Below, one piece after another: positions 34,188-51,340 of a stretch of DNA of 54,688 nt; the first letter of the stretch is position 1, and every line of letters starts with the position of its first letter. Both the position numbers and the translations under genes were made by a program. This stretch comes from a virus (lineage: Duplodnaviria > Caudoviricetes): the IMG/VR virus record IMGVR_UViG_3300042485_001890, positions 1-54,688 of that record; one strand, given 5' to 3'. Under the pieces are notes generated by a model. The model searched no databases and had not been told where the DNA came from. It saw nothing but the letters and a program-made list of their open reading frames with translations.

Positions 34188-34231
34188 AATATATTTCCTT
34201 AAAGTTATGTTCTAATACTTATTATCGTATA

Positions 34232-34342
34232 TGGTATGGTCGGTAGGTTTCGAACCTACAAGGGCTACGTCTATGACTACGCCCCGTCCCCTTACCAAGC
34301 TATGGGCTTGGCGGGAGGTCTGCCTATTCCACTCACGACCAC
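34232..34342 (-). ncRNA. atypical 111-nt tRNA-like RNA (Leu-like scaffold, elongated anticodon arm)
   Basis: acceptor GUGGUCG/CGACCAU-A-CCA; T-arm GUAGG-UUCGAAA-CCUAC; D-loop GAAUAGGCAGA; long variable arm; own TTGACT-N16-TATACT promoter at 34349-34376. Confidence 0.7.
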
Positions 34343-34390
34343 AATATTAGTATACAGGAAATAATACTAGAGTCAAGTCTTTTCTGTCAA

Positions 34391-35785: not shown

Positions 35786-35813
35786 TATTAACTCCTGAAT
35801 TTCTATTCTACTA

Positions 35814-35882
35814 TATTTATTCCAATATTAAATTTACTGTTCTTGCAGTGAATTATATTCACGGTGTTCTAACGTATAAATA
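35814..35882. promoter_or_regulatory. divergent late promoters
   Basis: tattta at 35814-35819; perfect TATAAATA at 35875-35882. Confidence 0.65.
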
Positions 35883-35910
35883 CTGTATTAAACACCAATG
35901 GAGTGCGCAA

Positions 35911-36351
35911 ATGTACACAGTTATAACAAAATGGACACCAAATTCTGATGGTGCTAGATATTTAAGTTTTGCAGCAGTTAAAAACATAATAACTGCTGAT
36001 AATATGGAAAATGGATTACCTTTAGTTCCCCCAGAAAAATATGATGCTGGAATTTACGGAGCATGGGCAGTAGCTGTAGTGCAATACAGCAATTATTTTT
36101 TAGAAACTGGTGGCAATATAGACTATCGATTTTTTTACAACGATCAAGGATCTGTAATAACAGCACAAATATTTGACCTAGAAGAAGTTCATACTGGTGT
36201 ATTATCTCAAAGTTTTTACAATGATTTTGTGTCAGCAAGACAGGCATTTACTGCACTAGTTGATGTGAGTTTTGAAATTAAAAAAACTTCTTTGGATCTT
36301 GGGGCGATTGATTCTTATGAAGAGGCAGCAGCAATATTTGCCACGTTATAA
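35911..36351 (+). CDS. hypothetical protein (146 aa)
   Basis: ATG 35911 with GGAG RBS after TATAAATA; upstream extension in the ORF track is unlikely. Confidence 0.65.
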   Translation: MYTVITKWTPNSDGARYLSFAAVKNIITADNMENGLPLVPPEKYDAGIYGAWAVAVVQYSNYFLETGGNIDYRFFYNDQGSVITAQIFDLEEVHTGVLSQSFYNDFVSARQAFTALVDVSFEIKKTSLDLGAIDSYEEAAAIFATL

Positions 36352-36365
36352 AATTGTACTGTTAA

Positions 36366-37133
36366 ATGCATCCTATAGTAGTAGCGTATCCGAGATCGGG
36401 CAGTGAGATACTAACTAATATTGTTTTTAATTATGCACATCAGGTTTGGAATTCTGAAAGATGTCTCCAAGAATTCCTATTAGTAACATTTTTTAGAAGT
36501 TATGATTTCTCTTTTGTCAATAACAAAATTGAAGGCTCATACTGGTCAATCCCCAAAGACCAATGGAAAGAAAATTGGAATAGTATAAAAGACAAAACCT
36601 TTGAGATTTCTCAAGAAAGAATTTCTTGGCTACAAACCAATCCCAATTATGTCTTCAAGTTAATTACTACTCCTAGATTAACAGATTCCCAATATGACTG
36701 GTGTTTAAAAAATTTCCATTGTATTTTTATACAACGTAACGATAAAATTAGATCGTTTCTAAGTTTTTTATTTTTGTATTACATAGGCACACACCATTCT
36801 CTAGATGCCGATACTATTAAAAAACAAAATTTAAAAATTAAATTTGATATTAATTTTGCAAAATTGTGGGTTTGGGATTATAAAAAATATAACTTGTTGC
36901 GAGATTCTTCAACTGATAAATCAATATTAGTCTACGAAGATCTCCTAGTCGATGGTGCAGTAAGTGAAGATAAAATTTTAAAAACTTTAGGATGGGAAAT
37001 ACCTAAAGATTACAAGTTCTATAAGTTTCAAACTAAACCAACGCCATACGAAGACGACGACATTATAAATTATTTTGAAAATCCGGATGAAGTAAGAGCT
37101 TATATTAAGAGCTTGCCGGAAATTTTTGATTGA
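36366..37133 (+). CDS. sulfotransferase-like P-loop protein
   Basis: VVAYPRSGSE (5'-PSB-like), IFIQRND...SFLS (3'-PB-like), LVYEDL. Confidence 0.65.
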   Translation: MHPIVVAYPRSGSEILTNIVFNYAHQVWNSERCLQEFLLVTFFRSYDFSFVNNKIEGSYWSIPKDQWKENWNSIKDKTFEISQERISWLQTNPNYVFKLITTPRLTDSQYDWCLKNFHCIFIQRNDKIRSFLSFLFLYYIGTHHSLDADTIKKQNLKIKFDINFAKLWVWDYKKYNLLRDSSTDKSILVYEDLLVDGAVSEDKILKTLGWEIPKDYKFYKFQTKPTPYEDDDIINYFENPDEVRAYIKSLPEIFD

Positions 37134-38295
37134 AAATTTCCTTAACTTTACCTTCATTACTAATTAACACAGTTTTGTCCGTGTTAGACATTATAACAAT
37201 TGCAGCAGACGATTGATAAGTTTTTTGACTTACAGGTAATTCATCCCAAGGCCAAGCGTGTTTATAAACAGCATCAACTGATGAGTGTGTTTCTATACCT
37301 CGCCAATTAACAGCTGAAAATTTCCGTTTAGGTTCGGTATTCATCAAATAGACTCTACTAATGTAACCTAGTGCATTGTACTTTACGAGCTCACCTGAAA
37401 ATTGTGTTTGTGTAGTGTAGCAGTTAATAGTTAAATCAACTTGATTTGCTGCTAATTGTTTAGCAAGTGATCCGTAGAACATATGCCCGTTTAATCTAAA
37501 ATTTATTTCTACACAAAAAAACTCTCCTGCATTGTGTTTAATTTCTAAATGCACAGGTCCAAACTTATGATCAAGTTTATCAAGCCATATGGTAGCTACT
37601 TCGTATATTTTATTGATCAGTTGCGGGTCTTCGTTGTAGTGCATTAGCTCTACTTTCTCTTTCCAAATTTTATCTGTAGAATTTCTTATGTATTTCCAAA
37701 CAGCTACTAACTTATGGTTACCGTTGCAACTTACAAAGTCAACAGCATATTCATCCCCATTAAAAAATTTAGATATAAAGAAATTTTCTCTGTCTGTTAT
37801 ATCTACAGTTTGAGAATTTACAAACGATACGTCTAAACATCCGCCTGAATATTCCACAGGAGCAGGTTTAATAACACATTCATTGTGGCTATTGGCAAAT
37901 TCTTTAAAATTTGTAATTGCAGATTCTTGACCCAATGTTTGATACAATACAAATTTATTGTATCTCTCATTGGCAAATGTTAAACTATGTTTATTGTTTA
38001 GATTTAATACATAGTCTATTGCATCTTTTAATTGTTGGCCACTTTCTGTACAAGAAAATACAAATAAAATATTATGTTTGTATTCATTGAGTTCTTCTAT
38101 TAACACGTTAATGTCTTCAAAAATAAAAGATCTAATAAACAAACTGTTAGTAACAGTAGAAAAGTTTTCATCAAATGACTTTTTACTACTAAAAATATGT
38201 ATAGGAATAATATTCTGAAAGAAGCATCTATGCACTAATGCATTGTGCGAGCGAAAAGAATCAATAATTATAACGTATTTTTTTGTGCTAACCAT
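37105..38295 (-). CDS. ATP-grasp ligase (L-amino-acid ligase-like)
   Basis: NKF, CVIKP...SGG, GDEYAVD.VS.NG.H, GPVHLEIK, VEINFRLNG. Confidence 0.8.
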   Translation of the reverse strand: MVSTKKYVIIIDSFRSHNALVHRCFFQNIIPIHIFSSKKSFDENFSTVTNSLFIRSFIFEDINVLIEELNEYKHNILFVFSCTESGQQLKDAIDYVLNLNNKHSLTFANERYNKFVLYQTLGQESAITNFKEFANSHNECVIKPAPVEYSGGCLDVSFVNSQTVDITDRENFFISKFFNGDEYAVDFVSCNGNHKLVAVWKYIRNSTDKIWKEKVELMHYNEDPQLINKIYEVATIWLDKLDHKFGPVHLEIKHNAGEFFCVEINFRLNGHMFYGSLAKQLAANQVDLTINCYTTQTQFSGELVKYNALGYISRVYLMNTEPKRKFSAVNWRGIETHSSVDAVYKHAWPWDELPVSQKTYQSSAAIVIMSNTDKTVLISNEGKVKEIFNQKFPASS

Positions 38296-39119
38296 GTTGT
38301 TATACTTTCACCTAGTGGGATCCTAATAGTGCCGTTTGGTCTTGTGTAAAACTTATAGCTTGTGTTTTGAGTTGTAGCTAGTATGGCACTTTGACTTGGA
38401 TCAAAGTCTTCAAAATGTTTACAGAATTCTAATTGGTGTTCTTTTAATTTAGAAGCTAATGTTATTATGTCTACTTCTTTACAAATGTTTGCTATTAGAT
38501 TAAACGGCTGTAGGCCAACATATCCAAAGGTTTTTTGTAGCACATGTAAATTTTGAATTTTTTTCTTACTTAAAATAAGGCCGCATCTTAGTTCAGGAAG
38601 TCCTAAGTTTTTGCTAAAACCTAACAACAATATTTCTGTGTTAGATGGCACCGGAGTTTTATCTAAACAAGTTCCTATATATGCACCGTCTAATATATGT
38701 ACTTTACTATCCCATACGGTTGCGTGAACTGAACCATCTATAGTACTGGGATTAGTATCGTAACTTATATGACAATTTGTAATACTAGGTACTTCGGTGG
38801 CACTTTTAATAGTCTTAAGCCAGAAGTAATCACCTAGCAACATCTTAATATCTATGTTTTTAAAATGAATAGGCATATACTCTAATGCCTGAGTAATACC
38901 GTTGTTCATAAAATACATATAGGGAAATTGATCTATATCTATAAGCGGACGATACCAGTCCCTAAAAACAGCTTCAAGTTGGGATACATTTAGCAGTTGC
39001 TCTCTTTCATAGTATCTGTAATGGCGTTTTGCTAATTCAACAATTTCAGGCAGTCGTATTGGAGTTACTTTAGGAAAAGGAAAAATATTTGATTGATCTA
39101 CAAATGTTGGGATCTGCAT
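38268..39119 (-). CDS. PLP-dependent enzyme, aminotransferase class I/II-like
   Basis: NGITQAL, TNPSTIDG, ILDGAY, GFSKNLGLPELRCG; probable start MQIPT 5 nt after TAAATA. Confidence 0.75.
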   Translation of the reverse strand: MQIPTFVDQSNIFPFPKVTPIRLPEIVELAKRHYRYYEREQLLNVSQLEAVFRDWYRPLIDIDQFPYMYFMNNGITQALEYMPIHFKNIDIKMLLGDYFWLKTIKSATEVPSITNCHISYDTNPSTIDGSVHATVWDSKVHILDGAYIGTCLDKTPVPSNTEILLLGFSKNLGLPELRCGLILSKKKIQNLHVLQKTFGYVGLQPFNLIANICKEVDIITLASKLKEHQLEFCKHFEDFDPSQSAILATTQNTSYKFYTRPNGTIRIPLGESITTWLAQKNTL

Positions 39120-39124
39120 GTTAA

Positions 39125-39144
39125 TATTTAACTCCATATAAATA
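39125..39144. promoter_or_regulatory. back-to-back late promoters
   Basis: tattta at 39125-39130 and TATAAATA at 39137-39144, each 5 nt from an ATG. Confidence 0.7.
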
Positions 39145-39149
39145 CTTTT

Positions 39150-39713
39150 ATGAATTTTATGAAATTAAAACATAACCTTGATATATCCAATTATGTAGTT
39201 AACGAAACATATATTTCATACGGACTTACCGATGACACAATATTCAAAGGAGTTAAGTATTCAAAAACTGATACTTCATTTAAATCAAAAATATTTTCGT
39301 TAATTCCTGAAGAATGTCAACAATACTTTACTATGTCAGTAATGGAAATAAATTGGACTATCCCGCCTCATACAGACAGTGACATTACTGCAACCATAAA
39401 TTGTTATGTTAAAACAGGCAATTGTACAACTCAGTTTTATAAATTAAAACCAGAGATTACAGATCCGAAAACTCCGTTATGGAAACCCGCCGCCCAAACA
39501 ACAGGAAGAATGTTTTCGTTAGATGACTTAGACGAAGTTGATAAGTTTAATGCTAATCCTGGCGAAATATATTTGTTAAACGTTTCACAACCTCATTCAG
39601 TAAGAAGGCCGCCCGACGTGGTGTACGTTGATCGAGTCGCAATTTGTTTACAGTCTAAAAAGTTTAATTTTAATGAAACAATAAAATTATTAGAAGCCAC
39701 TGGCAATTTATGA
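39150..39713 (+). CDS. cupin/2OG-Fe(II) dioxygenase-like protein
   Basis: IPPHTD...LLNVSQPHSV...RVAICL (HxD...H...R). Confidence 0.65.
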   Translation: MNFMKLKHNLDISNYVVNETYISYGLTDDTIFKGVKYSKTDTSFKSKIFSLIPEECQQYFTMSVMEINWTIPPHTDSDITATINCYVKTGNCTTQFYKLKPEITDPKTPLWKPAAQTTGRMFSLDDLDEVDKFNANPGEIYLLNVSQPHSVRRPPDVVYVDRVAICLQSKKFNFNETIKLLEATGNL

Positions 39714-40481
39714 TTTGCTAATAAGTTTTGCTAGTTGTCCTTCAACGTCAAATTCCCACCATCTATGTGTGTTTATAAGCTCTCGTTGATTGTGGTGGTG
39801 GTTATTATGCCATCCGAATCCTAATGTAAGGAATCCTATTAGAATATTATTTTGGCTGGTATCCGGAGTGTCAAAATTTCTGTAGTTTATAAACGGAATA
39901 TTCATGTGTGTGATACTGCTTACAATATTTTCTCTAGTGTGTTCTAACAGCACAGGAATAATATATAGGCTTAACAATAAATTAATGTCAATGCCCAGTA
40001 GAATTAAAAACACAGCCCAGTTAATTTTAATAAAGTGTTTACTTAACCACATCAATGCAGGGTCTTTAAACACTTTCCTTGAGCAGTAATTTTGTAAACT
40101 AATAACGCGGTTGGTACTTTCTTTTAATCGATAGATCAAAAAACTTTGTACGAATCCGTGTTGCGATGGACTACTTGGATCTTGCGGACTATCGCTAATT
40201 TTGTGGTGCTTTTGATGTATAGCTACCCAAAAGTGTATAGGTGCAAAGCCACCGATAGTACTCAATACTCCTAACAACAGTTCCACTGGGCGCCACGTTT
40301 CAAATTGTCTATGAGCAAATAACTTATGACTTCCTACACCATTGCCGATCGGGCCAACCAAAAACCATGCTATTGCAACTAGCCACCAATTGATAGTCAG
40401 TTCTCCTAGTGCAACTCCACCTATCATTATAAGTGCAATGATGTGCAGAGGTAACCAGTATCTCCAAAAATATCTATTCAT
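39708..40481 (-). CDS. membrane fatty acid desaturase 1
   Basis: His boxes HKLFAH, HQKHH, HNNHH; TM helices. Confidence 0.9.
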   Translation of the reverse strand: MNRYFWRYWLPLHIIALIMIGGVALGELTINWWLVAIAWFLVGPIGNGVGSHKLFAHRQFETWRPVELLLGVLSTIGGFAPIHFWVAIHQKHHKISDSPQDPSSPSQHGFVQSFLIYRLKESTNRVISLQNYCSRKVFKDPALMWLSKHFIKINWAVFLILLGIDINLLLSLYIIPVLLEHTRENIVSSITHMNIPFINYRNFDTPDTSQNNILIGFLTLGFGWHNNHHHNQRELINTHRWWEFDVEGQLAKLISKS

Positions 40482-41242
40482 GCAGTTTTTCCAAAGTAGT
40501 GTTTTACTAATAATGCTGTTACGTCTATTTCGTGCGGGCGGTGACCAAAGTTATAGTTACTAGGTTCTGCGTGATGATTGTTATGCCATCCTTCGCCCAT
40601 AGTGAGCCATCCTGCCCAATTGTTATTTTTTGCTGTGTCAGCTTCTAATGTGTAGTTTACATATCCATGGCGGTGACAGTACCAGTTAACAAATAAGTTT
40701 GCTTCTACTTTCCAGAGTATTGAGGCCGGAACAAAGACGTACCAAAAGAATTTAGCACTTATTAGATACACTAGTAAACTGACTACAAATAATATTTTGT
40801 AATAGTGTTTGTCGTAGGCTACTAAAAATTTATCTCTAATTAAATCTCGCTGTATTTTCATATCTAAAGATTTAAACTTTTTTTCTAAGCCAAACTCCCA
40901 AAATAGTGTGCCCCATAAGCCACGAACTGGCCCGTGTATATCTAATTCTCGATCACTGTGTTTATGGTGATGTCTGTGACTTATTGCAAATTTTAATGGG
41001 CTGTGATTAACTTGGAAGATGCTTAAAAAGATTATTAAGTTTTTCTTAAATTCGCTACCTGCGGTAAAACTTCTATGACTAATCAGTCTATGATGCAGAC
41101 TAAGACACAAATGATTAAATCTAATCATGAACCACATTGGGATTAACCATAGCCAATCTTCGTGTGTATACATCAAACTAAATCCTATTATGGCTAGTAT
41201 GCAGAATAAAAATATAACAAGTTCGTACTTAGGTAGTTTCAT
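40478..41242 (-). CDS. membrane fatty acid desaturase 2
   Basis: HRLISH, HRHHH, VNWYCH, GEGWHNNHH. Confidence 0.9.
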   Translation of the reverse strand: MKLPKYELVIFLFCILAIIGFSLMYTHEDWLWLIPMWFMIRFNHLCLSLHHRLISHRSFTAGSEFKKNLIIFLSIFQVNHSPLKFAISHRHHHKHSDRELDIHGPVRGLWGTLFWEFGLEKKFKSLDMKIQRDLIRDKFLVAYDKHYYKILFVVSLLVYLISAKFFWYVFVPASILWKVEANLFVNWYCHRHGYVNYTLEADTAKNNNWAGWLTMGEGWHNNHHAEPSNYNFGHRPHEIDVTALLVKHYFGKTA

Positions 41243-41958
41243 TAATTTGCAATTTTTATAAATTTAAAAAACTTAATTAGCAGTTTTCCCGGATCTCTAT
41301 CTTCTATTTTAGAAGGAATGTTATGATGATCAACATGATAAGAGCCCAGTGTTGCCCACGCATAAGTTGTGTTATTCTTTACACCGTTAGTATCGTGTTG
41401 AAACCATGCATTACTAGCCATCTCTAAAATAAAACTTAAACACATACACACTAGAATTCCGATTGTAAAATGTACAGACATTAAAGAAGCTAGTAAAATA
41501 GTTCCCCAAATTAATTTAAATTGATGCGTAGCCAAGAACATACAGCTAGGATTTTTGAGTAAATCTTTTACTATCATAATACCAACGGTTGGAGTTTTTT
41601 TTGACCACATCCATCCAATAAAACTATTAAATTTTCCTGTTTTAGGACTGTGCAAATCTAAATCTGTATCACTGTGTTTATGATGGTATCTATGTCCTTT
41701 TGAATAATTTAAAGGATCACTTAACATAACAAATAAACTTAGATACCCAATGATAAAATAAAACGGTTCTTTTAATTTAAATTGTCCGTGGCATATAGAC
41801 CTATGAACAAAATTATAACCTATTTGATAACACAGCACATATGTTAATACAAATCCATATAGTGTTGCAATACCTATGCCAAAAAAGAATGGTAGTATTA
41901 TAGTCAGCAAAAATACAGGGATGTTTACCTTTATCAAATATTTTAAAAAAACAGTCAT
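41242..41958 (-). CDS. membrane fatty acid desaturase 3 (divergent)
   Basis: HRSICH, HRYHH, third box HVDHH. Confidence 0.85.
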   Translation of the reverse strand: MTVFLKYLIKVNIPVFLLTIILPFFFGIGIATLYGFVLTYVLCYQIGYNFVHRSICHGQFKLKEPFYFIIGYLSLFVMLSDPLNYSKGHRYHHKHSDTDLDLHSPKTGKFNSFIGWMWSKKTPTVGIMIVKDLLKNPSCMFLATHQFKLIWGTILLASLMSVHFTIGILVCMCLSFILEMASNAWFQHDTNGVKNNTTYAWATLGSYHVDHHNIPSKIEDRDPGKLLIKFFKFIKIAN

Positions 41959-42722
41959 TATGTGTTTTCTTTGAAAAAGTGCCTAATCATAAATGCAGGC
42001 GGGTCGATCTCCCACCAAGTTTCTCCTTGCCACCAGCGACCAGGATTAGCATGATGATTATTATGCCATCCTTCGCCAAGTGACAGTACACTTGCTAACC
42101 AGTTGTTATGACTTAGATCATTTACTTCGTATTTTCTATAACCCCATAAATGCGGTAGTACACCAATAGCCTGAGCCCCATGAAAACACCCAACTGCAGG
42201 TAACGCATATACAAACCCAGCTAATCTTATATCGATTAATGCTAATATTATTAGAATAGAAAAACTAATTAAAAAATAATTTTTATGTACAAATCTTAAA
42301 GGTGTTGACGTTAGAAATGGCGTTATAAACCGCTTTGGTATAATAATATTAGGCCAAATACCGAACCAAGTTTTTAATTTACCACGTGCAGGGTTATGAG
42401 GATCTTTGTCTGTATCTGAACTGGTATGATGTAAACGATGCACACTACACCACATTGCCGGACTTCCTAGACTAGTAGGAATTGAAGACAATAACAATAT
42501 CCATTCTTTAAATTTAGTAGTTGAAAACGCTCGATGGCTATAATATCTGTGTAGAGAAACATTCACACCGACAATCCCAGTCCATAAAAAACACAAAAAT
42601 CCTATCAAGAACCAATAATACTCTTCTGAAATGACGGCCGCATATATGGCTGCTAACGCTATTATATGGTTAACAATGTGCAATATTCTAAACTGTACTG
42701 TTCTGGTAAGATTTATTTTCAT
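41958..42722 (-). CDS. membrane fatty acid desaturase 4
   Basis: HRYYSH, HRLHH, GEGWHNNHH. Confidence 0.9.
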   Translation of the reverse strand: MKINLTRTVQFRILHIVNHIIALAAIYAAVISEEYYWFLIGFLCFLWTGIVGVNVSLHRYYSHRAFSTTKFKEWILLLSSIPTSLGSPAMWCSVHRLHHTSSDTDKDPHNPARGKLKTWFGIWPNIIIPKRFITPFLTSTPLRFVHKNYFLISFSILIILALIDIRLAGFVYALPAVGCFHGAQAIGVLPHLWGYRKYEVNDLSHNNWLASVLSLGEGWHNNHHANPGRWWQGETWWEIDPPAFMIRHFFKENT

Positions 42723-43401
42723 TATTTTTAATATAGTTTTTTAACACACACGCCGATTTAAGATTCCAAGATACGATCATTACAGGTTTATATATATGCA
42801 GAGGAACAGCTGTTCGAAAAATTGAATAATTATACTTATCTAGATCATCTTGATTAAAGAATACAGCTTCTAAACTTAGAAAATATTTTCCGTTGGTATT
42901 AGGAAATGTTTTTACCAGTTCTTGATTTAAAAATTCTTCTACATTTTCGGTTCTTAAAATTTTTCTAGATAGTCTTACTGTAAATAACATTTTGGTAATA
43001 CCCTGAGATTCAAAATGTTCAGATGCCAGCGTTGACAACGTATCCATGTCTTCTCCGGGACTACTCCAAGTTTTATTTTTATGATATACTAGAGCAAGAT
43101 ATGTGTATGGTAGAATATCATTAGGTCTGAGACAGTACTGATCTGATAGAAAAACTTTAGGTTTGAACACTATTATGATTTTTTCAAGCTCTCCATTTTC
43201 AAATTTGCTGCATACAACAAAATCTTTTTGTGAAAACTTTTGAAATGATAATTTATACCAGGCTACCATTCTCTCAATAGATTCGTAGCTGTAGAGTTTG
43301 ATCTGTCTATTTTTTTCAAATTCTAAATAGTGGTCAAGGATTGACTCGAGATGCTGATGATCTGTTGAATCGAGAGGATCGAGAAATCTAAAAAAAGGCA
43401 T
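42688..43401 (-). CDS. hypothetical protein, possibly GNAT-fold
   Basis: probable start MPFFRF; weak GNAT-like pattern (FENGEL...EHFESQGITKMLF); TAAATA at 43421-43426. Confidence 0.45.
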   Translation of the reverse strand: MPFFRFLDPLDSTDHQHLESILDHYLEFEKNRQIKLYSYESIERMVAWYKLSFQKFSQKDFVVCSKFENGELEKIIIVFKPKVFLSDQYCLRPNDILPYTYLALVYHKNKTWSSPGEDMDTLSTLASEHFESQGITKMLFTVRLSRKILRTENVEEFLNQELVKTFPNTNGKYFLSLEAVFFNQDDLDKYNYSIFRTAVPLHIYKPVMIVSWNLKSACVLKNYIKNNENKSYQNSTV

Positions 43402-43451
43402 AGAATATATAGTGTTTAGGTATTTATGTCCTATGTTTTTAATGGTGGTTG

Positions 43452-44366
43452 CTACTGAAATTGAGACAATCGAGCTACAGCGTCTGGATAATATTCTAGA
43501 TATTCGCCATTCCATTTTTCTCTATGGTCTTTTACTGCTTCCATATTAGGATGATTTATTATAGGCGATTGATAAATTTTTTCGTATCCTGTATATTTTA
43601 ATCTTGTTTTCTTATCAAAGTCATAGACATCCATATTAAAATCGGAACCATTGTTAAACACATACGATTTTGTAGAATTACTTCCTTTTTTTCCAGGAAT
43701 CATATTATTACCTAATTGGGCCATTTTGGGATCCAATAGAAAAGACAGCATCATTTCTGGAGTATACGATAATAAAAAAGGACAACCGTTGAGATTAAAT
43801 TTTTTATAGTAACGTAAAATAGAATGTATGTATTGTAATTCTTGAAGATACCATTTATTTGTTTTTTCTTCATATTTTAAATATGGTGGATCATTTCCTA
43901 AAATAGTAAATCCATCTAACTGGCTCGCAACATATAAAGTTGCAGGGACTGCAAATGCACAACAATCTATCGATTTAGCAATTTCCCAATGTTGACCACT
44001 GATGACAAACTTATCAAAGTCTAACTCATAAATTTTTGGTTTTAAATTGTATGCATCACAAAAATTAAATGCATGAATAGTATCATGGTCATTATAGATA
44101 GTATTTTCTTTGACGTTGTTGAGTTGAATAATAACAGGAGTAAATTTAATTCCAAGGTGCAGTAACACTCTTGCAACATATTCACTGTCTAGACCTCCGC
44201 TGTACAGTAGTTGTATTTCTCCAGTGCGATTAGCATTGACATATTCTGTTGCCAGTAACGTTTCTTGAAAGTAAGTTCCAACTTTCCTTTTGGGAGGATC
44301 AATGTTAACATGCCAAGTATCTCCGCTGCCCAACCCCTGCATGTAATTATTTTTAAGTAGTTCCAT
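43452..44366 (-). CDS. PP-loop (adenine nucleotide alpha-hydrolase) ATP pyrophosphatase, asparagine-synthase/QueC-like
   Basis: LLYSGGLDSE; C-terminal K...F...R.KYTGYE. Confidence 0.7.
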   Translation of the reverse strand: MELLKNNYMQGLGSGDTWHVNIDPPKRKVGTYFQETLLATEYVNANRTGEIQLLYSGGLDSEYVARVLLHLGIKFTPVIIQLNNVKENTIYNDHDTIHAFNFCDAYNLKPKIYELDFDKFVISGQHWEIAKSIDCCAFAVPATLYVASQLDGFTILGNDPPYLKYEEKTNKWYLQELQYIHSILRYYKKFNLNGCPFLLSYTPEMMLSFLLDPKMAQLGNNMIPGKKGSNSTKSYVFNNGSDFNMDVYDFDKKTRLKYTGYEKIYQSPIINHPNMEAVKDHREKWNGEYLEYYPDAVARLSQFQ

Positions 44367-45168
44367 TGATTTTTAAATAGTTTCTATAATGTAATTTTTG
44401 AATTTCTAAATTTTCAAAATTTACTTCATTGATAAGCTCTGCTTGTTCTCGATCCTGCTTCCAGGCTGTCTCCCAGACAGTGTTATTTAAATCCCATTGA
44501 TCACTATCGTCGGTATATTTAAAAACATGAACATTAGACTGATCTGTATTTTGTTTTTCAATGACAGTTACAAACAATGATCCTCTTTGCCATTCTATCA
44601 TTGTGTATGGATATACTGCTATCCAAGCGGCAGCTAGTCCTTGTTTATCGTAAACAAATTGTGTGCTACCATTTGTATAATATTCCCATTTTATATCTGA
44701 GAAATCAGTAATTCCAATTTGATCATAAACTCCCTGATGCACTGTGGGAATATGATCAACATCTAAAAACAAATCCATTATGTTAATATGGTTAGATTTA
44801 ACAAGGTCGACTCTAGTTTCCACAAGTTTTAAATTAGAAAAATCTTCTGGTATTTTAAAATTTACAGGTTGTGAAAATAAAAGACTATTCCATAAATAAA
44901 CCGATTGTGTTTGTAAGGCGGTTTGATTTTTACAATAGTGTTCTGTCCTTCCACTAGTAACAGGTCGACCGTCCAACGTAAATGTCCAGTTGTGATATGG
45001 GCAAATTCTATTTCCCGATCCTGACACTGTAGAAATAATACTTTTTTGATGTGGACATATGTTAGATATTAATTCTAGTCTGTCATGATTTGCCAGTATA
45101 AATTTATTATATTGAGGTAGGACTGAAAAGGTATTACCTGCAACTGATTTTTTGTGTGCAAGAAACAT
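44353..45168 (-). CDS. Rieske [2Fe-2S] non-heme iron oxygenase alpha subunit
   Basis: CPH...CPYHNWTF.LDG; DVDHIPTVH mononuclear-Fe motif; C-terminal QD. Confidence 0.88.
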   Translation of the reverse strand: MFLAHKKSVAGNTFSVLPQYNKFILANHDRLELISNICPHQKSIISTVSGSGNRICPYHNWTFTLDGRPVTSGRTEHYCKNQTALQTQSVYLWNSLLFSQPVNFKIPEDFSNLKLVETRVDLVKSNHINIMDLFLDVDHIPTVHQGVYDQIGITDFSDIKWEYYTNGSTQFVYDKQGLAAAWIAVYPYTMIEWQRGSLFVTVIEKQNTDQSNVHVFKYTDDSDQWDLNNTVWETAWKQDREQAELINEVNFENLEIQKLHYRNYLKINGTT

Positions 45169-45170
45169 TT

Positions 45171-45944
45171 TTATTTTCGTATAAGTTTAATAATTAATCC
45201 TGAGATATCAACTTCCCACCACTTTGTACCAAAATATGCATTTTTAGGAAATCTATGATGATTGTTGTGCCATGCCTCGCCCCAACTAGGAATAGCCCAT
45301 AACCAGTTGTTTGAACTTTGATCTGTTAGATTATACGTGCGATAGCCACCGTACCAGTTTGGCATGTGCCCTACATAGTTAACAATATTACTCATTAATC
45401 CCGTAATTACAGCAGGCAGCCAATGTGCAAATATCATCAGCCAAAATCCGCCAATGATAAAAAGTGTTCCGCTGTAAGCAATAAGGATAGCAAAATAATA
45501 ACGGTGCAAGAACTGTTGAAATTTATCAGTGACTAGATCACGCATACGCCATTTAGTATCAGCACTAACTTCGTTAACATAATCTAGTGTAAAAATTTTA
45601 ACGCCTTTGTGTAAAGGGCTGTGTGGGTCTTCTGGTTTGTCGCTCTTTAAGTGATGGTTGATGTGAATAGCTACCCAAGCTAACGGACTACCCGTGCCTG
45701 CAAAACAGCCTACCACTGAAAGTATTTTAGTTAGCCACGGATATGTTTTGTAACTGTTATGCGTTAACTGTCTATGATATGTTATTACGATTCCTAAACA
45801 CCCGTAAACAAAGTAGCCTAGCAAAACTAACAACAATTCAGTTGCACTCAAGCCGTAGATATATACGCCTAGTATAGATCCTAGCAAAGATATGATTAAA
45901 AATAGTTGGGCACCTAACGTACTGCTTGAAAAATAGTTCTTCAT
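45171..45944 (-). CDS. membrane fatty acid desaturase 5
   Basis: HRQLTH, HINHH, VNYVGH, GEAWHNNHH. Confidence 0.92.
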   Translation of the reverse strand: MKNYFSSSTLGAQLFLIISLLGSILGVYIYGLSATELLLVLLGYFVYGCLGIVITYHRQLTHNSYKTYPWLTKILSVVGCFAGTGSPLAWVAIHINHHLKSDKPEDPHSPLHKGVKIFTLDYVNEVSADTKWRMRDLVTDKFQQFLHRYYFAILIAYSGTLFIIGGFWLMIFAHWLPAVITGLMSNIVNYVGHMPNWYGGYRTYNLTDQSSNNWLWAIPSWGEAWHNNHHRFPKNAYFGTKWWEVDISGLIIKLIRK

Positions 45945-45948
45945 GCAA

Positions 45949-46530
45949 CTATTTATCGGGTAGATTATGTCCTTTAAGTTTTCTAGCTTTTATCGCAATG
46001 TTATCTGGTTTTAATTCCTGACCCATTAATCTCCAGTACAATTCAAATTCTGGTTTGGTATTTGCAGGAACTACAGCTAGAGTAGTTAAGTCATACTTTT
46101 CCTGAATTGCGTATGAGTTTTTCTTCCATTGCCTTTCGTATACACGTTCTAGACGTTCTGCTATACTATAAAAGTATTGATAGTATCCTCGACCTTCTGC
46201 TACTTCAAATGCCGCTTTAAATAGCATTCCAAATTCAGGTCGATTAAAATTAAAATAGGACGTATAAACGGAACTAAAAAAATTTGAGATTACCCAAAAT
46301 TTTCCTCGCATCTTGCTTTCGTAAAATCCTATAGTTATCCAACTAATTAATTTACCATCTTCAAAATAACCAATTGTTACGGAATTGTTAGATTTGGATT
46401 GTTCTCGAAGAATTTGATACTGTTCAATTGACATAGGAGAAGTACCACTTATTTTTTTACGAGAAAAAAAGACTTGATCATAAATTTCTTCGTACTCGTA
46501 ATTGCCAGTAATATCGCGAACTTCTATCAT
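45949..46530 (-). CDS. GNAT-like hypothetical protein
   Basis: GYFEDGKLISWI...LFKAAFEVAEGRGY pattern. Confidence 0.5.
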   Translation of the reverse strand: MIEVRDITGNYEYEEIYDQVFFSRKKISGTSPMSIEQYQILREQSKSNNSVTIGYFEDGKLISWITIGFYESKMRGKFWVISNFFSSVYTSYFNFNRPEFGMLFKAAFEVAEGRGYYQYFYSIAERLERVYERQWKKNSYAIQEKYDLTTLAVVPANTKPEFELYWRLMGQELKPDNIAIKARKLKGHNLPDK

Positions 46531-46534
46531 AATG

Positions 46535-47287
46535 TTACTGTTTTATAAAATTTATTAATACACCGATTGGATCATATTCGTACCTACGTACCTTAGTAGA
46601 CACAAGTTGGGCATTGGCATGATGATTATTATGCCAAGCATCGCCTAGAATAAAAGGCCATAGATACGGATTGTTAGTACTTTGATCAGTTGTTTCAAAG
46701 TTTCTATAACCTTTCATATGTGCAAAATAGTTAAACATAGTTTGAGTTACACTGACTAAAAATACAGGGATAGCCCACATATAAAATATCAAATTAAAAT
46801 TAATTATAGACAACAATACTAGGAAACTTAATATTAGCAATAGATAATACTTGTCGATTTTTATATGTACGGCAGTTAATAATTCTTTTACAATAAAGTG
46901 ATTGATTTTTGTATTTTCTTGTATAGGTTTAAATCCTATAAAATTAAAATTTTCATTGTGCGGACTGTGAGGATCTTTTTTGGTGTCAGAAGTTGCATGA
47001 TGAATCCTGTGTATATAGACCCAACCTAGGGGACTTCCGCGGCCCGCTAGCACAGCAAACACAGTAAAGAACCATTTGATTACTGAGTTTAGTTTAAAAC
47101 TTTTGTGGCTATAATATCTGTGCAGCATCATGCTGATTCCTAGCACACTATACCCGTAGAACATCAATACGGACAGCAATATGTATTTCCAAGAAACATC
47201 TGCAACAAATGGACACACTATAATAAGTGCAATTGACAAGAGTTGGATTATACGCAATGTATTCGGGGAAGATGAGAATAGTTTCAC
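46535..47287 (-). CDS. membrane fatty acid desaturase 6
   Basis: HRYYSH, HRIHH, FNYFAH, GDAWHNNHH; GTG start 4 nt after TAAATA. Confidence 0.92.
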   Translation of the reverse strand: MKLFSSSPNTLRIIQLLSIALIIVCPFVADVSWKYILLSVLMFYGYSVLGISMMLHRYYSHKSFKLNSVIKWFFTVFAVLAGRGSPLGWVYIHRIHHATSDTKKDPHSPHNENFNFIGFKPIQENTKINHFIVKELLTAVHIKIDKYYLLLILSFLVLLSIINFNLIFYMWAIPVFLVSVTQTMFNYFAHMKGYRNFETTDQSTNNPYLWPFILGDAWHNNHHANAQLVSTKVRRYEYDPIGVLINFIKQ

Positions 47288-47291
47288 TCAG

Positions 47292-47326
47292 TATTTATTA
47301 TGTAACTCATGACGCCTGATTAAATA
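47292..47326. promoter_or_regulatory. divergent late promoters
   Basis: tattta at 47292-47297 and TAAATA at 47321-47326. Confidence 0.65.
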
Positions 47327-47330
47327 ACAT

Positions 47331-47951
47331 ATGAACAATATCATATTGCTACCGATTGATCTGCCTAAGCTGGAATTAAACAGAGACAAGACATTAGAAT
47401 ACTTTGATGCTAGAAAAGAAAGACATCAAGATTGGAATTGGGTCAACTTTAAAAAAACAAATCAGCCAATTGATCCGGAACTATTGAAACTTTTTCCAGA
47501 TCTGGATGAAAAACTACGTGCGATTCCGTTGCTAGATTATGATAACGGTGGACATTTTGATTTTAGAGAACAATTTGTCAATAACAAACCCCACCAGGAT
47601 CCTATTGCCAAGACACTAGCACCCTCCAATCTAGGTCCCACTGCTTACAAAAATCTAGTGATGCGTGATGTATTGGAGACATTTTATGTTTTACCAAACT
47701 CTACAAATCCTGATATTGTTCAATATGATACAAGGCCTAAAGAAGAATTAAATCCAGTATTTCCTATACTTCCTGATACCACTGATTGGTTTGTGTTAAA
47801 TAATCATTTAGGATATCACGGATCATTTATGGCGCCGGCCGAGTATAGAAAAATTACAATGTTTATTGCAGGCAAACTAGATTCTATAAAACATTTAGAA
47901 CTCCTGAATAGAAGTATTGAAAAATATAAAGATTATATAATTTATAATTAA
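47331..47951 (+). CDS. cupin/2OG-Fe(II)-like protein
   Basis: PHQD...FVLNN...YHGS...KI. Confidence 0.5.
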   Translation: MNNIILLPIDLPKLELNRDKTLEYFDARKERHQDWNWVNFKKTNQPIDPELLKLFPDLDEKLRAIPLLDYDNGGHFDFREQFVNNKPHQDPIAKTLAPSNLGPTAYKNLVMRDVLETFYVLPNSTNPDIVQYDTRPKEELNPVFPILPDTTDWFVLNNHLGYHGSFMAPAEYRKITMFIAGKLDSIKHLELLNRSIEKYKDYIIYN

Positions 47952-47961
47952 TTACTGTAAA

Positions 47962-48567
47962 ATGATTCCTGTATCAGTTCCGTTAATTTTTCCTAAGGTT
48001 ATACCCAATGACTGGGAAATATGGAATAACGTATGGGAACAAAATAAAAAATTTGTGCCGAAGTCGTTACAGACAAAAAATATAGAACAAGTTTACTGGG
48101 TGGGATTTGATATCTATGTCAAACCAGGTATAAACCCAAATGATATCATGCCGTATACATGCAAGAATGTAAACTGTCCTGAACTATTTCCATCATTATT
48201 TGACAACATAGATAAACTGCCCATTGAAGTGCATCTAGTCCGGGTGTTGCAAAGTTTAGGTAGAGTCCATGCTCATCATGACTATGCAAAGGAGACAGAA
48301 TACAATTCAATAAGAAGTTTATTAATTGATAACAATCCAAAACAAACTTGGTGGTATGAAGATAGCAATACCAATAAGCACTATCTAAAATTACCGGAAG
48401 ACACTAACACATGGTGGTATGATGATGCAAAAGTAAAACACGCTACTGATTTTTACATCGGGCATAAAAAACAACTAATTATGTATCAAGGATTAATTAA
48501 AGATTGTTTACAATCTGTATTAGAGGATAGTAAACAAAAATATTCAGATTACGTCATTTACGTTTAA
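47962..48567 (+). CDS. cupin/2OG-Fe(II)-like protein
   Basis: VHAHHD...WYDD...KHAT...KQL. Confidence 0.5.
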   Translation: MIPVSVPLIFPKVIPNDWEIWNNVWEQNKKFVPKSLQTKNIEQVYWVGFDIYVKPGINPNDIMPYTCKNVNCPELFPSLFDNIDKLPIEVHLVRVLQSLGRVHAHHDYAKETEYNSIRSLLIDNNPKQTWWYEDSNTNKHYLKLPEDTNTWWYDDAKVKHATDFYIGHKKQLIMYQGLIKDCLQSVLEDSKQKYSDYVIYV

Positions 48568-48613
48568 CAAGAAAAAAGGTAATCTTATATAATAATTATT
48601 TATTGGTAGATAA

Positions 48614-49321
48614 TTAAATTTCTGGACTCCAATAAATTGCTGAATCTTTATAATGTTCGGCAGAAGATACAATTAAGTTTTGAAGATGTTGAGGCATTTC
48701 AGACGTGGTTTTGCCAGTGCTTACTATTACAGCAAGTCTTTTTGAACTGGGTATATTTTTATTCACAGCATGGATTGCTCTCACGTTATTGATATAAAAT
48801 ACTTGTTGCGGATTTGGAATATTAGCCGCATATTGTACATCTTGAATAAATTCCCAAGGTCCAAGAGGATCAATTGCTGATAGTAATTCTGAATGTGAAT
48901 TGTGTGGAAGTTTTGTTGGTTTAATCAACAGAGAGTTTTCTAACTCTGTGTTTTCTAAATACATACGTAGTCCCCATTTATCAGGATCACGGTGCCAAAA
49001 TCCTAATCCACGATAATTGTCTTTTACAGGTAGTAAAACAATAGAGTCAATTTCTGAACTTGCTAAGTTGTATGCATCTCCAAAAAAAGAAGCTAATTGT
49101 GGAAATTCTTTATCAAAATTAAAACGCCATGCTCTATCGTATTTTGCATATATGATAGTCCACGGATATATATCACCTGTTATATGTTTACTTGCATCTG
49201 GTCGAGATTGAATTGTTTGAGTAACATAAAATTTATGTACCCACGATAACAACTTTGTATAATCATAAGTTGGAAAATCTAGCGACACTAACGGTGTATA
49301 TAAAATATCAATTGGCCTCAT
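48614..49321 (-). CDS. cupin/2OG-Fe(II)-like protein
   Basis: FWHRD...FYINNVRAIHAV...RLAV; TAAATA 5 nt upstream. Confidence 0.5.
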   Translation of the reverse strand: MRPIDILYTPLVSLDFPTYDYTKLLSWVHKFYVTQTIQSRPDASKHITGDIYPWTIIYAKYDRAWRFNFDKEFPQLASFFGDAYNLASSEIDSIVLLPVKDNYRGLGFWHRDPDKWGLRMYLENTELENSLLIKPTKLPHNSHSELLSAIDPLGPWEFIQDVQYAANIPNPQQVFYINNVRAIHAVNKNIPSSKRLAVIVSTGKTTSEMPQHLQNLIVSSAEHYKDSAIYWSPEI

Positions 49322-49392
49322 GACTATATTTAACAGTTATATATTATATAAAAATCTATATAGTGTGTTGAAAAACATGCTCAGGAAACCAA

Positions 49393-49980
49393 TTACATTG
49401 TGGGTCCGTTGCCACTCTTAAATCCAACGGTACCACCTTCTGCTTCAATACGTTTGATAACATCTTCAAACAAGATAGGAGCGAAATCCGGAGTTTGTTC
49501 TACACATACACAATGATAGCGAGTATCAATTACAGGAATTCCATACTTACCTGCAGGTTCCATCATTACACGATTGGCGTGTAAGTGACCGTGAATGTTA
49601 GTACCAAAGCGGCCTAATGACTCTGGGTGCAACGGAATATGACTTAAAATAAGTCCGTTCATCACGTGGTAGGCACGTAATTCTCTAAAGTGTTCGCGAT
49701 AGTCCTCGTCTCTAAAGATATCGTGGTTACCGCGTATTAACACTTTGTCACCGTTTAACCGATGTAAGATTTTCAAGGCCTTGCGGTTAATAACAACATC
49801 ACCTAAATGGTAGACTTTGTCAGTGGGTTTTACACGTTCGTTCCACGCCTTGACCATTGCTTCGTCCATTTCGTCGGCATCGGCCCACGGACGTAATTTT
49901 GTAACACCATCGTTACGTGTGAAGCGGCATACACCTGTGTGTCCAAAGTGCGTGTCGCTTACTAAGAATACACTTGGCAT
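49393..49980 (-). CDS. calcineurin-like metallophosphoesterase
   Basis: SDTHFGH, HLGDV, RGNHD, SHIP, IHGHLH. Confidence 0.9.
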   Translation of the reverse strand: MPSVFLVSDTHFGHTGVCRFTRNDGVTKLRPWADADEMDEAMVKAWNERVKPTDKVYHLGDVVINRKALKILHRLNGDKVLIRGNHDIFRDEDYREHFRELRAYHVMNGLILSHIPLHPESLGRFGTNIHGHLHANRVMMEPAGKYGIPVIDTRYHCVCVEQTPDFAPILFEDVIKRIEAEGGTVGFKSGNGPTM

Positions 49981-50702: not shown

Positions 50703-50921
50703 TTATAACCTATAAGAAACACGACCTTTTGATAGATCGTAAGGGCTAACTTCTATCTTGACACGATCGCCTAGAATGATACGAATCTTATGTTGCTTGA
50801 GTTTGCCACTGGTGTAACACAGCATCAAGTTGGGCATATTGTCAATCTTAACTTTATACATACTGCCCGGCAGAACTTCTTCTACAACGCCTGTTAATTC
50901 GATTATATCTTCTTTGGCCAT
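50703..50921 (-). CDS. infA: translation initiation factor IF-1
   Basis: MAKEDIIELTG.V.EVLP...SGKL....IRIILGDRVKIEVSPYDLSKGRV.YR. Confidence 0.95.
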   Translation of the reverse strand: MAKEDIIELTGVVEEVLPGSMYKVKIDNMPNLMLCYTSGKLKQHKIRIILGDRVKIEVSPYDLSKGRVSYRL

Positions 50922-51263: not shown

Positions 51264-51264
51264 G

Positions 51265-51339: not shown

Positions 51340-51340
51340 A

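Follow-up and report, generated by a model that had tools for sequence, protein, structure and literature searches.

The island and its borders

The stretch of DNA analysed here, referred to as the window, is the whole of IMG/VR record IMGVR_UViG_3300042485_001890, a linear sequence of 54,688 bp whose completeness is put at about 10% by CheckV. It is a fragment of the genome of a large, uncultivated lake phage. Proteins of the window match PHROG tail-fibre, virion and endonuclease families, and a backbone protein shows 33% identity to proteins of PA5oct-type jumbo phages, with T4-like phages more distant. The part of interest is an island of 18 contiguous open reading frames (ORFs) between 35911 and 49321, which has a GC content of 0.332 against 0.425 for the remainder of the window, a difference that is also seen in sliding windows. 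It encodes six membrane desaturases, a very small Rieske oxygenase and a stand-alone PP-loop enzyme, and it lies between two phage genes. A first-pass annotation, made from the sequence alone, had already reported the 18 genes with their coordinates, their AT-richness and the neighbouring Mtd_N tail-fibre gene, and in all of these it was accurate. The island and its flanks are as follows.

35855..49392, no strand assigned: strain-variable accessory cassette (the island), delimited by GC content and contig joints
34391..35785, minus strand: left flank, Mtd_N tail-fibre-like gene, outside the cassette (Pfam Mtd_N, E 2.2e-10)
49393..49980, minus strand: right flank, phage phosphoesterase, outside the cassette (phrog_547, 1.2e-48)

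The integrity of the island was examined in lake-water metagenomes. There are 24 runs that contain at least 89% of the words sampled from 34000-43900; 11 of these are unflagged as a possible source of the record, and four of the 11 were used for contig comparison. All four contain contigs identical to the island, one of which spans 35757-45957 with 1 mismatch. The left border is bridged in all four (by contigs beginning at 35720-35757) and the right border in three of the four, by a 951-base contig (48510-49460). Different arrangements are present as well. In run X17 an alternative contig joins 35854 to 49393 (with 85 letters on the shorter side, and with intervening letters possible), in run X15 a loose end at 35854 continues into unlike sequence, and in run X16 there is a joint from 35804 to 45186. 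Summed contig depth is greater over the flanks than over the island, the depth value not being a copy number. The listed pieces include no contig that runs across 35592-35755, which lies within the tail-fibre gene; continuity there comes from the window assembly alone. Given that the island and its bridged borders recur in contigs of independent runs, and that an alternative joint connects 35854 with 49393, a chimera is excluded: the island is a real cassette of 13.5 kb that varies between strains and is sharply delimited, at about 35854 on the left and 49393 on the right.

In what follows, island genes carry g-numbers (or des1 to des6 for the desaturases), L-numbers denote related loci, and c-numbers denote protein clusters obtained from 437 ORFs clustered across those loci.

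Six membrane desaturases

One third of the island ORFs encode membrane desaturases of the stearoyl-CoA desaturase (SCD) type, all on the minus strand.

39708..40481, minus strand: des1, SCD-type membrane desaturase (PF00487, 47.6 bits; clade with L007, L012, L015, L017 and L018)
40478..41242, minus strand: des2, SCD-type membrane desaturase (PF00487, 46.6 bits; orthologue only in L007, long branch)
41242..41958, minus strand: des3, divergent SCD-type desaturase (PF00487, 35.9 bits; all His ligands present; orthologue only in L007)
41958..42722, minus strand: des4, SCD-type membrane desaturase (PF00487, 58 bits; groups with L007, L008 (two copies), L012 and L015)
45171..45944, minus strand: des5, SCD-type membrane desaturase (PF00487, 70.1 bits; clade with L008 and L011)
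46535..47287, minus strand: des6, SCD-type membrane desaturase (PF00487, 61.6 bits; clade with L007 and L008)

All six score above the Pfam FA_desaturase (PF00487) cutoff of 29.7 bits, in a range of 35.9-70.1 bits. Nine histidines are invariant among them (H57, H62, H94, H97, H98, H193, H226, H229 and H230), making up HxxxxH, HxxHH and HxxHH motifs plus a ninth His; a nine-His pattern is also that of mammalian stearoyl-CoA desaturase 1 (SCD1). A profile built from the six sequences matches SCD1 at 1.5e-32 and AlkB at 5e-4, and the NCBIfam DesA-family model matches the four copies scanned at 6e-17 to 1e-27, all below its 400-bit cutoff. The HxxxxH and the two HxxHH motifs are described for SCD1 in the available portion of PMC8341276. 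These comparisons show the six, at the level of sequence, to be SCD-type desaturases with predicted complete sets of di-iron ligands, and so bear out the first-pass description of six di-iron desaturases with three His boxes.

The six proteins are only 22-31% identical to one another. In a maximum-likelihood tree of 32 distinct copies, des1, des4, des5 and des6 each cluster with copies from distant loci (support 90-100), while the stem of des3 has a branch length of 2.16. This grouping across distant loci marks the paralogues as old lineages that have been maintained separately. Against deposited phages, des5 gives only three weak single-gene matches, at 27-28% identity. It may be added that the des5 orthologue in L007 (9425-9995) is in two pieces, through a frameshift or an assembly error.

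The Rieske and PP-loop pair

Between des4 and des5, with g11 on the des4 side, are two adjacent genes that form the most constant part of the island.

44353..45168, minus strand: g13, compact alpha-only Rieske non-haem-iron monooxygenase (Rieske, E 7.5e-7)
43452..44366, minus strand: g12, stand-alone PP-loop enzyme with the fold of the asparagine-synthetase-B synthetase domain (SGGxDS motif and model)

In the Rieske protein the cluster ligands C38, H40, C56 and H59 and the iron ligands H139, H144 and D239 are invariant in 30 sequences, as is D136. Its closest solved relative by sequence is the carnitine monooxygenase CntA (2e-10, over residues 3-207 and including the catalytic domain), and PF00848 is found in some of its homologues. 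The predicted structure has a pLDDT of 91.6, and Foldseek relates it to SxtT/GxtA (to 1.8e-15), to CntA (TM 0.75) and to stachydrine demethylase (TM 0.73). Sequence and model together show g13 as a predicted miniature alpha-only Rieske monooxygenase of 271 aa, closest to CntA, stachydrine demethylase and SxtT.

The PP-loop protein retains an SGGxDS motif (S56, G57, G58, D60 and S61) that is invariant in 28 sequences. Its model has a pLDDT of 93.5, and Foldseek recovers the PP-loop fold, with TM values of only 0.43-0.45. In a full structural alignment made independently of Foldseek, with VIA-align, the best agreement is with ASNS (Z 14.1) and AsnB (13.6), followed by the carbapenam and beta-lactam synthetases (12.1) and the hydroxyamidotransferase TsnB9 (10.3); 250 and 249 residues are aligned with ASNS and AsnB (model residues 2-287), and 237-250 across the AsnB family. 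Other PP-loop families (LarE, TilS, NAD synthetase) give Z values of 9-10. The protein, at 304 aa, begins at the synthetase domain and has no N-terminal glutaminase domain, and there is no match to Pfam (E<=10) or NCBIfam (E<=0.01), including Asn_synthase. In view of the lack of a sequence-level family match and of the glutaminase domain, we describe g12 as probably working like the AsnB synthetase domain, rather than counting it as a member of the family. The fold suggests that it would adenylate a carboxylate and form an amide. A role as a sulfur transferase of the LarE/TtuA kind, for which the invariant C103 and C135 were considered, ranks below the AsnB-like assignment on the VIA-align Z scores. 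For both genes the names given in the first pass hold good, a Rieske domain and a catalytic domain being present in the one, and an invariant SGGxDS motif and the expected fold in the other.

In public metagenomes the Rieske protein forms 437 clusters and the PP-loop protein 330 clusters at 90% identity, and public contigs bearing the core module reach about 365 kb. Homologues of the two are absent from deposited phages (50,697 records), against which a megablast search with the island also gives no match. Among phage lipid auxiliary genes the core is both unusual and widespread, and no deposited phage has the core pair.

Conservation in related viral loci

Searching with the Rieske protein identified 14 viral loci, in which L009/L010 and L015/L016 have identical maps and scores and L017-L019 nearly so. 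The Rieske and PP-loop genes are adjacent in all 14. Desaturases are present in 13 of the 14, the exception being a contig of 5.7 kb, and the whole records of five relatives contain 8, 4, 6, 5 and 1 desaturase matches. Co-conservation in relatives, on which the first-pass annotation had made its proposal depend, is therefore seen for the pair and for the desaturases.

L007 has a Rieske protein 87% identical to that of the window, and its genes run des6-like, g15, des5 (as two fragments), Rieske, PP-loop, g11, des4 to des1, g19-like and PLP-like (for pyridoxal phosphate, PLP). The order in L026 is g19-like, PLP-like, ATP-grasp, g03 (split) and g02. The phosphoesterase that flanks the island is found near the module in L007, L011, L012 and L014. 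Most of the orphan proteins of the window belong to families that recur in such islands, because hhalign links g15 with c7, g17 with g18/g19, and g06 with c6.

There are two loci with extra copies: L011 has two Rieske/PP-loop pairs (9099-10816 and about 11100-12900), and L014 (3622-5409) has two tandem PP-loop paralogues after one Rieske gene. From these paired and tandem copies it follows that the core itself duplicates. Two further families are associated with the module. The first, c4, of about 180 aa, is directly beside the Rieske or AcpS gene in 9 viral loci (L011, L012, L013 and L015-L020); the one representative scanned has no Pfam match, and the family recurs in a bacterial genome (L042, about 5000-5800) by a desaturase and near a PP-loop gene (E 3e-7). 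The second is a homologue of TctC-type tripartite tricarboxylate receptors near the module in L009 (14428-15324) and L011 (14115-14969), with E 8.6e-8 for the one representative scanned, which in some relatives adjoins the 400-aa family c17.

Carrier and fatty-acid genes in the relatives

In five of the loci (L012, L013, L015, L016 and L020) the pair forms part of a longer string on one strand, in the order Rieske, PP-loop, c21, c22, c14, with c8 just upstream. The full string in these five is desaturase, c4, c8 / Rieske, PP-loop, c21, c22, c14, g18-family, c6 ... c7 ... desaturase. One representative of each cluster was scanned for family identity, and the assignments, together with those of other clusters in the relatives, are as follows.

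c8: AcpS (86 bits, cutoff 59.8)
c21: FabZ (146 bits, cutoff 113)
c22: divergent acyl carrier protein, ACP (PP-binding, 3e-5)
c14: FabF-like ketoacyl synthase, KS (both ketoacyl-synthase Pfam domains; 158 bits against an NCBIfam cutoff of 494 bits)
c34: UbiB-like ABC1 kinase
c53: B12/radical-SAM protein (closest models PhpK and 'lipid biosynthesis B12-binding/radical SAM')
c77: ATP-grasp protein
c41: GNAT protein

The earlier observation that neither an ACP nor an acyl-AMP ligase is visible proved correct across the whole 54.7 kb record. To the accompanying statement, that carriers would have to come from the host or from genes elsewhere, it can be added that relatives carry ACP, AcpS, FabZ and a FabF-like KS within the Rieske/PP-loop string itself. 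The ligase family PF00501 is absent from the window at E<=1 and from the records of all five relatives searched at E<=0.001, one of which (364 kb) is 100% complete by CheckV. The thioesterase family PF00975 and the rubredoxin family PF00301 are absent from the same five relatives, and PF00301 also from the window. General scans of 20 island and flank proteins show no thioesterase family, other hydrolase families not having been searched. Nor was a phage electron carrier found: Fer2 and rubredoxin are absent in the five relatives, and none was seen by eye among the small ORFs of the window.

Other proteins of the island

The remaining proteins of the island are listed here; PHROGs has no family for 10 island orphans.

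35911..36351, plus strand: g02, 146 aa from ATG; no Pfam or PHROG match; 57% identical homologue in L026
36366..37133, plus strand: g03, no family match; a single viral relative (L026), where the gene is split
37105..38295, minus strand: g04, ATP-grasp ligase (ATP-grasp_4 31.6 bits and ATP-grasp_3 25.7 bits, both over the Pfam cutoff)
38268..39137, minus strand: g05, possible truncated fold-type-I PLP protein, unproven (Aminotran_1_2, E 0.0082)
39150..39713, plus strand: g06, HxD...H...R oxygenase-like protein, probable iron/2-oxoglutarate (Fe/2OG) cupin (invariant H74, D76, H149 and R162)
42688..43515, minus strand: g11, start uncertain; 68% identical L007 homologue, which aligns from about residue 45
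45949..46530, minus strand: g15, divergent GNAT-like protein (hhalign to c7, 97%)
47331..47951, plus strand: g17, HxD...H family, found in viral sequence (hhalign to g18 family 96%, to g19 91%)
47962..48567, plus strand: g18, same HxD...H family as g17; family in 8 of 16 sources, with 548 representative clusters
48614..49321, minus strand: g19, distant member of the HxD...H family (hhalign to g17, 91%); homologues in L007 and L026

For g02 the ORF list gives a TTG start at 35740, but there is an ATG at 35911, and the L026 homologue aligns over 147 aa only. The ATP-grasp protein, which has only one viral relative, was correctly named in the first pass; the NCBIfam models PRK07206 (2.5e-26) and DdaF (4e-8) also match it, both below cutoff. 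The 'sulfotransferase-like' label given to g03 has no support, there being no match in Pfam, NCBIfam, PHROGs or PDB; the orthologue in L026 (2650-3301) is in two pieces, through a frameshift or an assembly error. The label 'PLP enzyme' for g05 stands only in part. An aminotransferase signal is present, but Aminotran_1_2 reaches 15.8 bits against a cutoff of 19.7, an NCBIfam transaminase model is weak at E 0.0015, and a PDB sequence search gives no match. Homologues of g05 occur in L007 and L026, and its SK...G...R.G stretch looks by eye like what we take to be the PLP-lysine motif of aminotransferases.

Two proteins had been called GNATs. The assignment has moderate support for g15, whose profile gives 15 matches in PDB, 9 of them named acetyltransferases (E 0.0015-0.28), and whose Atlas neighbours are of GNAT type with few shared features; g15 itself has no Pfam match, hhalign does not connect it at 70% or above with c41, the GNAT cluster anchored by Pfam, and a homologue lies next to the PP-loop gene in the bacterial locus L023. 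It is unsupported for g11, which matches nothing in Pfam, NCBIfam, PHROGs or PDB.

The proteins that had been called cupins do have conserved HxD...H motifs, but the family evidence is weak. The g06 family is linked to cluster c6 by hhalign at 78%, one of its eight members matches Asp_Arg_Hydrox (E 0.0076), and a PDB sequence search gives nothing useful. In the alignment of the g17-g19 family H105 is invariant and D107 and H160 are present in at least 90% of 58 sequences; Pfam matches none of 13 members, the PDB sequence search is empty, and the Atlas provides a lead for the g18 family, with Asp_Arg_Hydrox in 27% of one neighbouring cluster. The g17-19 and g06 family alignments are related by hhalign at 64%, and to a Pfam-positive AspH-like protein of L023 at 2-13%, which is weak. 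These motifs and profiles point to one probable GNAT-like acyltransferase and four probable HxD...H (Fe/2OG-type) oxygenase-like proteins.

Other genes of the window

Just to the right of the island are 7 tRNA genes (51190-54638, minus strand), for Thr-GGT, Arg-TCT, Gly-TCC, Pro-TGG, Met-CAT, Thr-TGT and Ala-TGC. The same region contains a 192-aa ORF (51939-52517, minus strand) with HDHWH and WH motifs, which may be a small oxygenase-like protein and has no PHROG match. A 72-aa ORF (50703-50921, minus strand), which by eye we take to resemble translation initiation factor IF-1, belongs to cluster c16, common to 4 related loci, and an 81-aa ORF (53898-54143, minus strand) presumably resembles the RNA polymerase omega subunit (RpoZ), again as judged by eye. 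Elsewhere, an ORF of 2479 aa (13359-20798, minus strand) is flanked by ORFs of 1264, 1012, 877 and 682 aa, of which those of 877, 1012 and 682 aa have no PHROG match at E<=1e-5.

Bacterial counterparts

The PP-loop family also occurs in bacteria. A profile scan of genomes found distant homologues (27-29% identity) in two Alphaproteobacteria metagenome-assembled genomes, where the shared neighbours are only one unknown protein and a GNAT-domain protein. The scan also found L023, a contig of Bdellovibrionaceae whose LspA and S13 peptidase mark it as bacterial. Here the PP-loop gene is accompanied by two desaturases, by a protein of the g15 family and by an Asp_Arg_Hydrox protein, which has a paralogue upstream (3.7e-10 for the one of the two that was scanned).

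Within one Bdellovibrionota order, 33 of 201 sampled genomes contain the PP-loop family, in up to six copies. An Asp_Arg_Hydrox gene lies within 10 kb of 9 of the 48 PP-loop copies (in 7 genomes), against about 0.6 expected from the density of hits; this estimate is arithmetic from coordinates, and three of the nine are in one cluster. By genome, the Asp_Arg_Hydrox family is present in 21 of the 33 with the PP-loop family and in 40 of the 168 others. Fifteen bacterial neighbourhoods were chosen from the best-scoring PP-loop matches. In the 14 besides L023 there are AspH-like genes (4), B12/radical-SAM genes (3, with E to 2e-100), desaturases (3, once with c4), ATP-grasp (1) and tandem PP-loop genes (5), and with L023 included, desaturases are near the PP-loop gene in 4 of the 15. 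We rejected any conclusion about the host, or about recent transfer, from these homologues, because the identity is only 27-34%. As a separate observation, desaturases are unusually numerous in this order, occurring in 170 of the 201 genomes with up to 12 matches per genome (G041 and G116 among those noted).

Possible function of the island

Our favoured reading, which we hold tentatively and at a little under even confidence, is that the island is a toolkit that makes an unsaturated, oxidised, amide-linked lipid, its genes being functionally linked in acyl or lipid tailoring. In this scheme the desaturases would insert in the host inner membrane after infection and act on acyl chains drawn from host lipids or acyl-ACP, giving each of several double bonds its own position or carrier. 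In the relatives, the chains could be held on the phage ACP, primed by the phage AcpS, with the phage KS and FabZ extending or dehydrating them. Amide formation would fall to the PP-loop enzyme, through adenylation of a carboxylate and its coupling to ammonia or an amine. Further N-acyl or peptide-type bonds may be formed by the GNAT-like and ATP-grasp proteins, and the Rieske and HxD...H oxygenases would hydroxylate or demethylate the product, with electrons supplied by host carriers. The infected cell would in this way come to contain a lipid of the N-acyl-amide or aminolipid type; substrate, order of steps and product are here what we infer. The first-pass annotation had proposed a dedicated acyl-tailoring pathway rather than a single auxiliary gene for membrane fluidity, and this gains real support from the presence of the pair in 14 of 14 loci, from the age of the desaturase lineages, and from the ACP-containing string in the relatives. 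The classes of the enzymes and the bacterial neighbourhoods of the PP-loop family also speak for the toolkit.

Several observations weigh against the reading. The 54.7 kb record has no match to PP-binding, ketoacyl-synthase, AMP-binding or rubredoxin families, and profiles built from the AcpS, FabZ, ACP and KS of the phages have no match there; in the relatives themselves, the phage ACP is far below the NCBIfam cutoffs and the KS has 158 bits against 494. Only one close relative has the genes for ATP-grasp, g03 and g02, L007 carries a g19-like gene in place of g06, and such mosaic content would be equally expected of a hypervariable island with unrelated cargo. The nearest relatives of the Rieske protein act on small cationic molecules, not on lipids. 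On the bacterial side, a phage-type Rieske protein is absent from the 3 genomes with PP-loop homologues that were checked, phage and bacterial proteins are only 27-34% identical, and an extra ACP is near the PP-loop gene in only 1 of 5 genomes.

The alternative that survives best, although we consider it rather unlikely, is a collection of independent auxiliary genes, in which delta-9-like desaturases keep the membrane fluid in cold lake water and the other genes are unrelated cargo at a hypervariable spot beside the tail fibre. Single phage desaturases are read in this way in the accessible text of PMC7678222 and PMC5776448, the enzymes are SCD/DesA-like, the cassette is strain-variable and mosaic, and the window has neither carrier nor ligase. 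However, six to eight deeply diverged lineages, spread across distant phages, are hard to explain by one redundant activity. The Rieske/PP-loop pair, which is adjacent in every locus and co-directional with ACP, FabZ and KS in five, also counts against this alternative, as does a bacterial PP-loop family that is linked to AspH-like oxygenases and desaturases.

A second alternative, and an improbable one, is a system that modifies peptides or proteins, either of the ribosomally synthesised and post-translationally modified peptide (RiPP) kind or acting on proteins of the virion or host envelope. It would use the AsnB-like enzyme for an isopeptide or lactam, ATP-grasp for cross-links, AspH-like enzymes for Asp/Asn hydroxylation, B12/radical-SAM for methylation and GNAT for acylation, leaving the desaturases as mere neighbours or as the acyl source for a lipopeptide. 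The bacterial neighbourhoods are consistent with this, since PP-loop genes are in tandem in 5 of 14 and lie by AspH-like, B12/radical-SAM and ATP-grasp genes, and the radical-SAM protein also scores with RiPP C-methyltransferase models. The AsnB-family fold moreover includes lactam-forming enzymes, and lasso-peptide cyclases are AsnB homologues. In the phage relatives, however, the core is paired with ACP, AcpS, FabZ and KS and, in 13 of 14 loci, with membrane desaturases, and the 304-aa g12 lacks the N-terminal domain of the AsnB-type cyclases, the structural alignment starting at chain residue 118. No precursor peptide was found, no search aimed at one having been made.

A polyyne or alkyne pathway of the Jam/Cay/Pgn kind, in which an ACP-bound chain is desaturated to conjugated triple bonds, had been suggested by analogy with JamB and CayBCE, and appears very unlikely. 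Three or more desaturases are present, JamB is placed in the same SCD-like class in the available text of PMC2593844, and the dedicated ACP and AcpS of the relatives recall the ACP-bound chains that polyyne desaturases use according to the accessible part of PMC9828172. The analogy nevertheless fails on its other components: acyl-AMP ligase, PF00975 thioesterase and rubredoxin are all lacking in the five relatives, including the complete 364 kb record, as are ligase and rubredoxin in the window. The six desaturases share one His-box pattern, and no delta-12-like member was seen among them.

The other analogy drawn in the first pass, to the beta-ethynylserine (Bes) amino-acid pathway with its ATP-grasp, PLP and Fe/2OG enzymes, is scarcely credible. 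ATP-grasp, a PLP-like protein below threshold and HxD...H oxygenase-like proteins are present, but nothing specific to Bes was found: of the core as given in the available text of PMC8341276, a PLP enzyme of the cystathionine-lyase type, an oxidase resembling haem oxygenase and an Fe/2OG halogenase are undetected in family scans (which included no halogenase-specific test), and no part of the island is less conserved than the ATP-grasp and PLP-like genes, which only one close relative has. Finally, an assembly chimera or bacterial contamination fused to a phage contig, raised in the first pass as a way in which the proposal might fail, would fit the sharp GC drop and the absence of the core genes from deposited phages, but it is hardly tenable, being excluded by the contigs of independent runs in which the island and both of its bridged borders recur. 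The gene order shared with L007 and L026 (which are other assemblies), the same phosphoesterase adjoining the module in L007, L011, L012 and L014, and the presence of the module inside a 364 kb record that CheckV rates complete also speak against it.

Returning to the reading as a lipid-tailoring toolkit, a bolder form of it can be formulated, which we think unlikely as a whole. Large lake phages would carry a self-contained, carrier-protein-based natural-product pathway for lipids, with a bioactive unsaturated fatty amide as product. The chain on an AcpS-primed phage ACP would be made polyunsaturated by up to eight desaturases, and the AsnB-like PP-loop enzyme, always paired with the miniature Rieske protein, would replace ligase and thioesterase, so that an amide or hydroxamate forms when the chain is released or capped. 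As a signal, a toxin or an effector on membranes the product would be active, and the cassette would be swapped between strains like a host-range determinant. If this is true, it would be the first specialised lipid metabolite from a bacteriophage.

Up to now, lipid genes of phages have been regarded as single helpers of membrane fluidity, and the island points to a conserved and widespread module of several enzymes. Should these enzymes act jointly, infected cells would be a place where bacteriophages make specialised lipids. The island would also be a source of Rieske oxygenases of very small size, of a minimal amide synthetase of the AsnB type, and of short desaturases in at least eight lineages, possibly with different regiospecificities. 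Since the cassette adjoins a tail-fibre gene and is found in only some of the co-occurring strains, the question arises of whether the lipid affects adsorption, superinfection or host survival.

Comparison with known systems

The open-access papers searched describe single phage desaturases, and in them we found no multi-desaturase set, no Rieske/AsnB-like pair and no phage fatty-acid synthesis genes together. The single desaturases of cyanophages, pelagiphages and Lake Baikal phages are likewise phage-borne membrane desaturases of acyl-CoA/acyl-lipid type, and in the accessible parts of PMC7678222 and PMC5776448 they are read as altering host lipids or fluidity. In contrast, the present island has six deeply diverged paralogues (up to eight in relatives) together with a Rieske and an AsnB-like enzyme, and its relatives add a phage ACP, AcpS, FabZ and KS.

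The polyyne systems cay/pgn and JamABC, as far as the available texts describe them, resemble the island in having several SCD-like membrane desaturases, which here too would work on one acyl chain, and in needing an outside electron donor, and they share the carrier-protein logic of its relatives. The core published in PMC9828172 consists, in the portion available, of an acyl-AMP ligase together with an ACP, a set of three desaturases that work on ACP-bound chains, a thioesterase and a rubredoxin, and the excerpt of PMC2593844 places JamB in the stearoyl-CoA-desaturase-like clade. Of this core, the window has only the 'three or more desaturases' (six, all of one SCD-like class). The island and its relatives have no acyl-AMP ligase, thioesterase or rubredoxin, and have KS, FabZ, Rieske and AsnB-like proteins instead. 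The Bes core comprises, in the accessible section of PMC8341276, an Fe/2OG halogenase, an oxidase of haem-oxygenase-like type and a PLP enzyme related to cystathionine lyases; family scans of the island proteins revealed no cystathionine-lyase-like or haem-oxygenase-like protein.

The Bdellovibrionota neighbourhoods have the same PP-loop family by AspH-like, B12/radical-SAM, desaturase, g15-type GNAT-like and ATP-grasp genes; they differ in an identity of 27-34% and in having no phage-type Rieske protein in the 3 genomes checked. For the Rieske protein, the closest systems are CntA, stachydrine demethylase and SxtT/GxtA, which it resembles in its cluster ligands, iron site and the fold of the catalytic domain. 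It is about 100 residues shorter (271 aa) and 13-17% identical to them, and its context is one of lipid and acyl genes, in contrast to the quaternary amines or alkaloids of the CntA/SxtT type. The PP-loop protein has a comparable relationship to the AsnB family (AsnB, beta-lactam synthetase, carbapenam synthetase and TsnB9). It differs in its length of 304 aa, the absence of a glutaminase domain, an identity of 8-12% and the lack of a Pfam Asn_synthase match. It is alike in its fold (Z 10.3-14.1) and its intact PP-loop, and the chemistry that this implies for the phage enzyme would be adenylation of a carboxylate, followed by formation of an amide.

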